64,000 nucleotides of DNA from Eledone cirrhosa (taxonomy: Eukaryota), in the NCBI GenBank assembly GCA_964016885.1, contig OZ024742.1, positions 122,140,001 through 122,204,000 of the forward strand, written 5' to 3'. This document shows positions 24,946-27,339 of this stretch, one piece after another. Each line of letters opens with the position of its first letter. Positions within the stretch are counted from its first letter, which is position 1. The notes beneath the pieces were generated by a model. The model did not search any database, had not been told where the DNA came from, and worked only from the letters and a program-made list of their open reading frames with translations. The position numbers were made by a program, and so were the translations under genes.

Positions 24946-25570
24946 AAGTATGTATACGTACATACATATATGTATACAGACGTACAGTAGTATGTATATA
25001 TATATACATACATGCACACATATATATATATGGATTCACCGAACATTTATTATAATGCTCGGTGTGTTTGTAAACAAACATTCCGAATTAAGCCGTACAG
25101 TGTCTACCAACCATCGTTGCTCATTTGTTCAACACTGACAAAAGAACACTGTACTAGTTTCAAGCTTATTAGCTATCGTCAGCAACATATACCTTCCTGA
25201 CAGATGATTGAACGTCTGAAAGTATATACTTTCCTTATGCATATCAACGGCTGAGAAGCCTAATTTGAATATCGAGTGAGTTAATCGGCCGGACGCATCG
25301 AAAACGATAAACGGAAAAAATGAAACGAAATTTCATTTCTCACTCTTAGTAGGGCTTTTACTTAAATATAAGTATGTATACGTACATACATATATGTATA
25401 AAGACGTACAGTAGTATGTATATAAATACATACATGCACACATATATATGTGTACGTATGGATTCGCCGAACATTTATTATAATGCTCGGTGTGTTTGTA
25501 AACAAACATCCCGAATTAAGCCGTACAGTGTCTAGCAACCATCGTTGCTCATTTGTTCAACACTGACAAA
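24946..25570 (-). mobile_element. Retrozyme-like HHR tandem repeat, ~1.5 units of ~424 bp
   Basis: The unit restarts at ~25370; homologous to 53250-54063; HHR at 25146-25188. Confidence 0.8.
25146..25188 (-). ncRNA. Minimal type I hammerhead ribozyme
   Basis: Minus strand: atgttg CTGACGA t agct-aata-agct t GAAA ctag TA cagtgt. Confidence 0.8.
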
Positions 25571-26050
25571 GGGATGCATACGAATGTATACACCAAATAC
25601 ACATAAAAATATATATAAAAGAAAAAAAAATATATATATATGTGTGTGTGTGTGTGTGTGCGTGTATACAGATAATTAAATAAACGTATATAAATACATA
25701 AATACGTATATAACAAGCACACACACATATCTACATGTAAATACACTTATGTTCGGAGACGACGTCAACCAAAACACGAAGTACACATATACACACACCC
25801 TACATACGTACGAACCCGCATACTCACACAGACGCAAAACACACGTATACACATAACCAAAACCATATGTACCAGAAAAAATAATATATACGCCATAACA
25901 TATACAATCAAATATACGTACGAGAAAGTATACGTACCTTCACAAAACATACATGTAATATATACTTACCTATACAAATAAATAATGGTTTAAACATAAC
26001 ATATACTTAGCTACCACATCAAGACGTAAAATATCCGCGTATAGTTCGTA

Positions 26051-26395
26051 CTATCCGTTAGGGTATAAAGTGGGGCTGTAATACAGGAAAGTTTTGTGCA
26101 ATTTATGTTTACAAGCCGAAATTGTCTCAGATTTGTTGTTTAAGATGTGGTCTTTGGCGTAGAGTATTTCCAGGACCTCAGCGGCGCAGAGGTCACATGG
26201 TCTTTTATTTCCGTTATACGATCTAGCGCTACCAAGGATCTCCCAGTGTAACTTATATTGGGTGTGGTTGTCTTTTAGACTCCAGATATAAGCTGAAAGT
26301 GACGTCATATTCCTTCTTAAAGCGTAACGAAAAGAATGGGTATGCATGTAAAGACGCTGCTTGAATCTATTGGCGGTTAACTCTATGTAGGCCCT
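26051..26395 (-). pseudogene. PLE GIY-YIG C-terminal half (possibly Nematis-like)
   Basis: YIELTANRFKQRLYMHTHSF...TSLSAYIWSLKD...W.IL...CDLC..E...LNNKSETISACKH. Confidence 0.8.
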
Positions 26396-27154
26396 GTACT
26401 TCGTGTTTCGTTTGACGTACGCCTTCGAACATAAGTGCATTTACATGTAGGTATGTGTGTGCGCTTGTTATATAGCTATTTATTTATTTATTTATATACG
26501 TTTATTTAATTATATGTATACACGCACACACACACACATAAAAAATATATATATAAAAAAATATATATATATATGTGTGTATTTGGTGTATACATTCGTA
26601 TGCGTGCGGGTACAGGCGTTGCGTGGGTTCTGTACGTGCGTGTGTTTTTTTTTGTTTTTTTTTGTGTGTACGTCCGTGTATTTGTATACCCATGGCGCGT
26701 GTTGTCGCGTATGCTTGTGTATGTACGTATATGGATGCGTGTATGTATTTATTTAATTTCATTCACCTCTGTATTTTATTTACTCTGAAGTCGAGAATCA
26801 TTCGGTTTCCTAGTTAGAATTTTAGTCTGCGACATCAGTTATACCATTTACGTGGTTTTGTCTTTGCGTGCAATTATTCTTCCCGCCCCACATATGACGT
26901 ATTATTTTCGTTTTTTCCGGTTATTGCCAGAGAACGTCTCTATGAACCACCTAAAAGAATATTAGTCTACGACTTCTTTTATACCATAAACGTGGTTTTG
27001 TCTTTGCGTGTAATTGTTTTTCACCGCTCCAAATAATGACGTATTGTATTCGTTTTTTCCCGTTCTTTGCCAGGGAACGTTTCCAATAACCAAAGTATCG
27101 TCTTCCTGTCTTCCTCCGGTTGCAACGTTTTTTGAAATATTCACTTCTGCGTTC

Positions 27155-27230
27155 ACAGATTGACTTTGTTAGTTTCAGAAGATCCCGTTAAAGGTGAAAG
27201 CACCGATTCTTTGCTTAAACTTTAATCTGT
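27155..27230 (+). ncRNA. Type I hammerhead with extended stem I; core mutated in this copy
   Basis: cagatt..agttt CAGAAGA tcccgttaaaggt GAA gcaccgattctttgc TT aaact tt aatctg; the copy at 10009 has intact CTGAAGA and GAAA boxes. Confidence 0.65.
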
Positions 27231-27339
27231 TATTTTAATATATATATATATATATATATATATATATATATATATATATATATATATATATATATATATA
27301 TATATATATATATATATATATATATATATATATATATAT

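Follow-up and report, generated by a model that had tools for sequence, protein, structure and literature searches.

Insertion anatomy of a retrozyme and a Penelope-like element joined at one locus of Eledone cirrhosa

Two element families and their closest described relatives

Non-LTR retrozymes of animals, as described by Cervera and de la Pena (2020, PMC7229834) and in a preprint by Li, Clavereau and Pollet (2026, bioRxiv 10.64898/2026.07.22.740005), consist of tandem non-coding units with one type I hammerhead each, have a strongly self-paired monomer, reach thousands of copies and coexist with Penelope-like elements (PLEs). PLEs have been proposed as the movers of these retrozymes, and where the two papers take this up the argument is drawn from co-occurrence and phylogenetic relatedness, not from insertion anatomy; the words "inverted" and "target site" are absent from the main text of PMC7229834. 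For PLEs themselves, a pattern of inverted copy plus tail has been described (PMC8557442, PMC3846280). In the Hydra clade of C-terminal EN+ PLEs, as characterized by Craig et al. (2021, PMC8557442), insertions have a (TA)n target, an inverted 5' copy and a tail at one end, and according to the same paper Naiad elements likewise target (TA)n with the same anatomy.

The window analysed here is a stretch of 64,000 nt from the 3.0-Gb genome of E. cirrhosa (G000:C3:122140001-122204000), in which a 428-nt repeat and a PLE are joined. Judged by its sequence, the repeat is a non-LTR retrozyme, with tandem short non-coding units and a predicted type I hammerhead in each; the family is new, and the kind of element is already known. 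Its unit is just above the 170-400 nt reported in PMC7229834 and inside the 51-972 bp given in bioRxiv 10.64898/2026.07.22.740005. The 34 full monomers that were measured span 420-447 nt, head-to-tail arrays reach 8 units in one arm (C1:9969246-9972233), and the monomer fold is far more stable than that of shuffled sequences (z -9). A 22-mer taken from the repeat matches the genome exactly at 16,690 places, its reversed control at none. The hammerhead combines a CUGACGA core, a stem II of 4 bp and a stem III that is palindromic, and its cut is predicted after GUA; helices are named, and the site of cleavage predicted, as is established for hammerheads. A scan that demanded the core retrieved 160 distinct natural copies fitting the motif, in which stems I and II pair and stem I shows compensatory variants. 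An Rfam search returned no match to a hammerhead family, just low-score miRNA matches to TA-rich hairpins. The Eledone family differs from the published retrozymes, as described in these papers, in that fixed 3' ends, a (TA)n target, inverted arms and a one-sided tail are here read from sequence.

Sister hammerhead repeats (L218:2003-2210, L275:2076-2380 and L016:4-55) are 64-73% identical to the retrozyme, those of L218 and L016 having the same palindromic stem III, and other hammerhead families recur in the sampled loci L256, L089 and L265. Some whole insertions were found twice with identical breakpoints (L114 at G000:C1:19616600-19626500, L008/L010 and L188/L189); these are segmental duplications or assembly duplicates.

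Natural frames of the PLE, 656-726 aa long, carry reverse transcriptase (RT) together with a GIY-YIG endonuclease at the C-terminus in a single ORF. Pfam gave no RT or GIY-YIG match in the three frames tried, and the Atlas neighbours of the C-terminal part are GIY-YIG clusters (score 0.96-0.98). The endonuclease piece had 55,656 genome candidates at first look. Placed by the motif set described in PMC8557442, the PLE matches the Hydra clade: both have RW(R), with RWR here where the clade description has RWK, DKT, the CxCX5C linker (CNCRNRADC), CxxC (CDLC) and CxH (CKH) around the E and N residues and no CCHH, and they have in common the (TA)n target, the inverted arm and the tail at one end. 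Compared with that description, the Eledone element has a longer tail (about 105-110 nt vs 30-40), a longer unit (about 3.2-3.4 kb vs less than 3 kb) and a different hammerhead core (CAGAAGA vs CUGANGA). The CAGAAGA core is found in most of 77 copies (window 27176-27182), 62 of which are identical in the exact context; the motif has a hammerhead-like fold and may be weak or inactive as a ribozyme.

The composite insertion and its junction

The composite reads, in order, (TA)n, 1.49 retrozyme units of 428 nt, the endonuclease end and 3' UTR of the PLE, an inverted PLE arm and (TA)n (Table 1). The first-pass annotation had described, on the minus strand, a PLE GIY-YIG remnant and 3' UTR that run to 25574 and pass directly into a hammerhead repeat, and this stands, with no TA tract between the two parts. 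It was also right that the inverted arm, which it placed at 26395-27240, carries on with PLE sequence and a different hammerhead-like motif, and that the repeat is not the pLTR of this PLE, the best match of the repeat to the full PLE unit having E 0.12 outside low-complexity DNA. At 25574 the PLE 3' UTR is missing about 645 nt up to the short end and about 750 nt up to the long end of the family. The two PLE arms meet head-to-head at 26395 with a 1-nt overlap.

Table 1. Features of the composite and of a second retrozyme insertion in the window (window positions)
Feature	Position	Strand	Detail
Left target (TA)n tract	24778..24946	.	
Retrozyme partial unit	24946..25151	-	monomer +1 to about +217; ends at retrozyme short 3' end (monomer position 214-217)
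Predicted type I hammerhead	25146..25188	-	25188-25183 paired with 25151-25146 (stem I); core CUGACGA starting at 25182; stem III a palindrome; cleavage predicted between 25152 and 25151
Retrozyme near-full unit	25152..25577	-	monomer +3/+8 to +428
Junction	25571..25577	-	4-nt microhomology 25577-25574, one unmatched base, repeat +8 onward
PLE 3' UTR, 3'-truncated	25574..26050	-	
C-terminal GIY-YIG endonuclease part, Hydra-clade PLE, 5'-truncated	26051..26395	-	frame 26051-26394
Inverted PLE arm (3' UTR/pLTR)	26395..27238	+	ends at PLE short 3' end without tail
PLE hammerhead-like motif	27156..27232	+	variant core CAGAAGA, the PLE family's majority form
Right target (TA)n tract	27238..27339	.	
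Second insertion of the retrozyme family	53244..54057	-	about 1.9 units, two hammerheads, TA end

The join had been placed about 9 nt from the predicted self-cleavage position. Its nearness to the cut was borne out and the distance was not, since the figure of 9 nt arises when the second unit in the window, itself mutated, is taken as reference; compared with the repeat family, the junction repeat matches unbroken to +8. Repeat positions +3..+6 coincide with the final four PLE bases, a 4-nt microhomology, which places the join at +3 to +8, slightly nearer the cut. These repeat positions read GCGT in 102 of 181 repeat copies, and GCGT is also the commonest form of the last four PLE bases (28/41 PLE copies); the microhomology in the window carries one CpG-type change. 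Only the window itself spans the junction among the scored candidates (40 of 880, and of 6411), and an amplified family carrying the junction was therefore rejected. No read or contig in five runs bridged the join, and depth was zero on the multicopy PLE side too, so this bridging test was without power.

Comparison with L291 and L115 revealed two PLE subfamilies set apart by a 3' UTR indel of about 125 nt, and the composite junction falls in a 3' UTR part present only in the subfamily of the window. An origin of the right PLE arm from another subfamily was considered because its best match is 89%, and is not supported, as its divergence lies inside the spread of other copies and it has a subfamily allele in common with the left arm. 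Within the 3' UTR, window 26816-26949 and 26956-27092 form a 136-nt internal duplication, 82% identical.

Elsewhere in the window, the second retrozyme insertion belongs to another subfamily (76-86% identical). The 3' end of the window's PLE recurs as a 127-nt head-to-head stump between TA tracts (9947-10073) and as another single 3' end (35931-36048), and a diverged Hydra-like endonuclease remnant, about 29% identical, lies at 20773-21092 (-). At 29805-29893 (+), a canonical hammerhead core has a TA tract about 45 nt after it and likely marks the 3' terminus of a further PLE-type element. Motif scanning gave further hammerhead-like cores at 5837 (-) and 10253 (-).

Fixed 3' ends and the spread of 5' breaks

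Retrozyme insertions stop in 3' at two fixed sites, +214-217 (short) or +273 (long). PLE insertions likewise have a short stop and a long one about 105-110 nt beyond it, 42 nt before the ATG. Inverted pairs combine one end of each kind, which corresponds to the inverted copy plus tail known from PLEs (PMC8557442, PMC3846280). With unresolved pairs set aside (13/43 for the PLE and 11/44 for the repeat in the first comparison, 11/38 in a further PLE sample), 52 of 57 PLE pairs were short+long (29/30 and 23/27), five were long+long and none short+short. The retrozyme gave 32 short+long pairs out of 33 in samples not selected by an end (22/22 and 10/11), and 38/39 in a long-anchored sample in which 4/43 were set aside. 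For both families together, 84 of 90 resolved inverted insertions are short+long, and a single one of the 90 is short+short, a rate obtained from samples picked by internal motif or best score. Long-end arms lacked a detected inverted partner in 46 of 89 cases, and a target site duplication is unreadable within (TA)n.

The composite has the short end of the repeat on its left and the short end of the PLE on its right, that is, short+short. This departs from what one event is expected to leave, provided that short ends are equivalent across families, an equivalence that is taken from their geometry and from one other composite (L293).

Among retrozyme insertions, arm-to-arm difference tracks unit-to-unit difference (rho 0.52, P 0.001, n=36). 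The arm-to-arm difference is low even in copies 12-13% away from the family majority (L121, L124, L126), which argues that at birth there was hardly any difference between arms or between units; such near-identity would fit one circular template. Fold-back on the first cDNA was discarded as the source of inverted arms, being a misfit with pairs in which either arm has sequence that the other lacks. The repeat just past its short end resembles the reverse of the PLE short end, a likeness taken as AT-rich chance.

The 5' breaks of the retrozyme were collected from 90 of 347 long-3'-end-anchored places and from insertions at the first 100 of the 16,690 motif matches, giving 195 ends after removal of duplicates (L189, a duplicate of L188; L151-L153, the same places as L106, L107 and L114; and within-locus duplicates). 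Plotting these breaks against the cut, the check proposed in the first-pass annotation, yielded a near-random spread without focus at the cut. Observed and expected numbers were 0 and 1.9 at +1..+4, 2 and 2.8 at +3..+8, 2 and 4.3 at +1..+9, and 14 and 9.7 at +1..+20 (P 0.12). Of the passes reaching +21, 175/189 (93%) read through the predicted cut; this, with no peak at +1..+4, indicates that the usual retrozyme template does not end there. The closeness of the join to the cut is weak evidence for run-off from a cleaved RNA end. A hotspot was detected at +10..+12 (8 observed vs 1.5 expected, scan-corrected P 0.019), with others of similar strength at 77 (70-83), 245-256 and 392-401, of which 247-256 is the strongest. 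The hotspots at 77 and 247-256 lie in local hairpins, +10 is the base of a weak hairpin, and 392-401 lies at the 5' side of the hammerhead; the breaks at 70-83, 245-256 and 392-401 may reflect pausing or snap-back during inversion.

Origin of the composite and carrier of the retrozyme

We hold with moderate confidence that the composite arose by two events, which appears likelier than a single switch from RNA to RNA. Our leading reading, to which we give slightly less than an even chance, is that the PLE was resident first and that a later retrozyme insertion in the adjoining TA tract deleted the PLE 3' end via microhomology. A PLE inserted in (TA)n in the usual inverted form would have had its short end to the right and, following the rule, its long tailed end to the left. 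The RT/endonuclease of a PLE would then have primed on retrozyme RNA at the short site and, with a template that was circular or had not been cut, would have gone through an intact hammerhead for 1.49 units before stopping at +3..+8, after which the cDNA end would have annealed to resident PLE DNA over the four common bases, with a loss of about 750 bp. The data show the anatomy, the junction bases, the end rule, the breakpoint spread and the co-targeting of TA tracts; the order of events and the identity of the enzyme are inferred.

The last step may be likened to the microhomology-joined 5' junctions of R2 and Penelope, and microhomology 5' joins with target deletion have precedent in the accounts of PMC3774820 and PMC3846280. 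R2 5' junctions, as reported in PMC3774820, are alike in that the cDNA ends near a ribozyme cut, with chance microhomology to the target and target deletion; however, the templates of R2 are linear, with the cut as their end, whereas 93% of retrozyme passes read through it, and the R2 deletions described there are small, whereas about 750 bp would be required at the composite. Penelope in Adineta vaga, according to PMC3846280, also has a microhomology 5' junction without target site duplication, an inverted pLTR with tail and a trans-mobilised passenger. That passenger is flanked by Penelope's own pLTRs, whereas the retrozyme has no detectable sequence in common with the PLE, yet the same two-end geometry.

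We prefer a PLE already in place before the retrozyme inserted because the short+short ends of the composite go against the short+long rule, because the two families co-target TA tracts, because single-arm insertions are common and breaks unfocused on the cut, and because the PLE arms are more diverged than the repeat units. A PLE piece lies within 400 nt in 23 of 191 sampled repeat loci, of which some overlap (three of the PLE matches are <=45 nt, and four further rows are the window itself), and in L179, L182 and L194 the precursor layout is seen, the repeat 5' end facing the PLE 3' end with little but TA between. By the internal clock, the PLE arms differ at 14/162 positions (8.6%), in a CpG- and TA-rich UTR stretch, and the repeat units at 6/195 (3.1%; Fisher P 0.035). 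Against this reading, private-allele divergence (repeat 3.8%, PLE left 2.5%, PLE right 3.7%) does not make the repeat younger, in disagreement with the internal clock, by which the PLE is older. Random breaks would put a join <=8 nt from the cut in about 2% of cases, the join lies beside the +10..+12 hotspot, and the target deletion of about 750 bp would have to be supposed, neither an empty nor a PLE-only allele having been seen.

That similar divergence in all three parts (2.5-3.8%) is as expected if the composite was made at once, with RT running up to the 5' end left by ribozyme cleavage on a linear retrozyme dimer cut in part, jumping by microhomology into the PLE 3' UTR and being joined to the inverted PLE arm. 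This sequence of steps, which we consider doubtful, would also account for a join 2-7 nt from the cut with 4-nt microhomology and for the subfamily allele common to right and left PLE arms (9/29 other copies). It would require one hammerhead to be cut and the next one uncut, and it meets the read-through of 175/189 passes and the zero stops at +1..+4. None of the sampled repeat loci showed a PLE directly abutting the 5' join of the repeat, and in 60 further PLE loci no repeat arm was a partner. The near-random breaks and the short+short ends, found in 1/90 resolved pairs, speak against taking as the best reading the one-event model of the first-pass annotation, in which RT passes from near the cleaved 5' end of the retrozyme RNA to PLE mRNA. 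A second composite without a TA tract between its parts is in favour of a single event: L293:2170-5985 (G000:C2:109188000-109194500) is bounded on one side by the short end of the repeat and on the opposite side by the long end of a PLE of almost full length (702-aa frame), repeat and PLE being joined head-to-head across a 50-nt repeat piece and about 55 bases without assignment. L293 conforms to the short+long rule and is a better candidate than the window locus for one event with two RNAs; a later PLE insertion with deletion also fits it. Composites of this kind are rare, with none among the 60 further PLE loci.

The precursor layouts would equally suit two full insertions that entered one TA tract independently and were fused afterwards by a microhomology-mediated deletion unrelated to retrotransposition. 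Internal gaps are frequent in PLE copies, microhomology deletions of Penelope copies are on record in PMC3846280, and short+short ends are compatible with such a history, which sequence alone cannot tell from our leading reading. We regard it as improbable, a third event being required and a break <=8 nt from the cut then being pure chance (about 2%).

An assembly misjoin of two repeat loci at 25570, with both sides multicopy and the join unbridged by read or contig, is very improbable in view of the powerless read test, a 4-nt overlap too short to drive overlap assembly, a contig of 379 Mb and a join that resembles natural inversion joins (overlap or gap <=2 nt in 15/29). We give equally little credence to the repeat being the pLTR of another, unseen PLE, which would carry it in cis, since pure head-to-tail arrays reach the length given above and no sampled repeat arm ran upstream into a PLE-like frame in about 1.2 Mb screened around repeats, even though the genome holds other Hydra-like frames at 29-55% identity along with the sister repeats and retrozymes resemble pLTRs in Xenopus as presented in bioRxiv 10.64898/2026.07.22.740005.

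As to what moves the retrozyme, priming at (TA)n with a fixed family 3' end, the copying of about 1.5 units and PLE machinery as likely carrier were all upheld. The first-pass annotation had also taken the junction as physical evidence for which autonomous element mobilises the retrozyme; such evidence comes from the family-wide anatomy, not from the join, and points to PLEs as a class, not to a single PLE family. PLEs likely carry the retrozyme, as both families have the (TA)n target, inverted arms, a one-sided tail and short+long pairing. Among PLEs, the Hydra-clade family is the likeliest carrier, although not proven, because its copies are numerous and similar in age and because two fusions with the repeat are seen. 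On the other side stand the further Hydra-like frames, the sister repeats and the Naiad elements with their equal target and anatomy. It is possible, on a tentative view, that one Hydra-PLE enzyme handled two different RNAs in a single insertion, the window locus and L293 being co-integration fossils. The short/long rule would then result from rolling-circle copying, by the PLE enzyme, of ribozyme-made RNA circles from two fixed priming sites, and this enzyme would recognise a passenger without sequence similarity to itself.

In the literature covered, with most subscription journals and supplements outside its scope, neither a retrozyme-PLE chimera nor a short+long rule in a retrozyme was reported. 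The junction first flagged is a minor part of the case for PLE mobilisation, whose value lies in the family-wide PLE fingerprint: retrozyme insertions that bear it are physical evidence of another kind than co-occurrence. The unexplained PLE "tail" becomes testable, since there are now two templates, unrelated to each other, whose end sites are defined.
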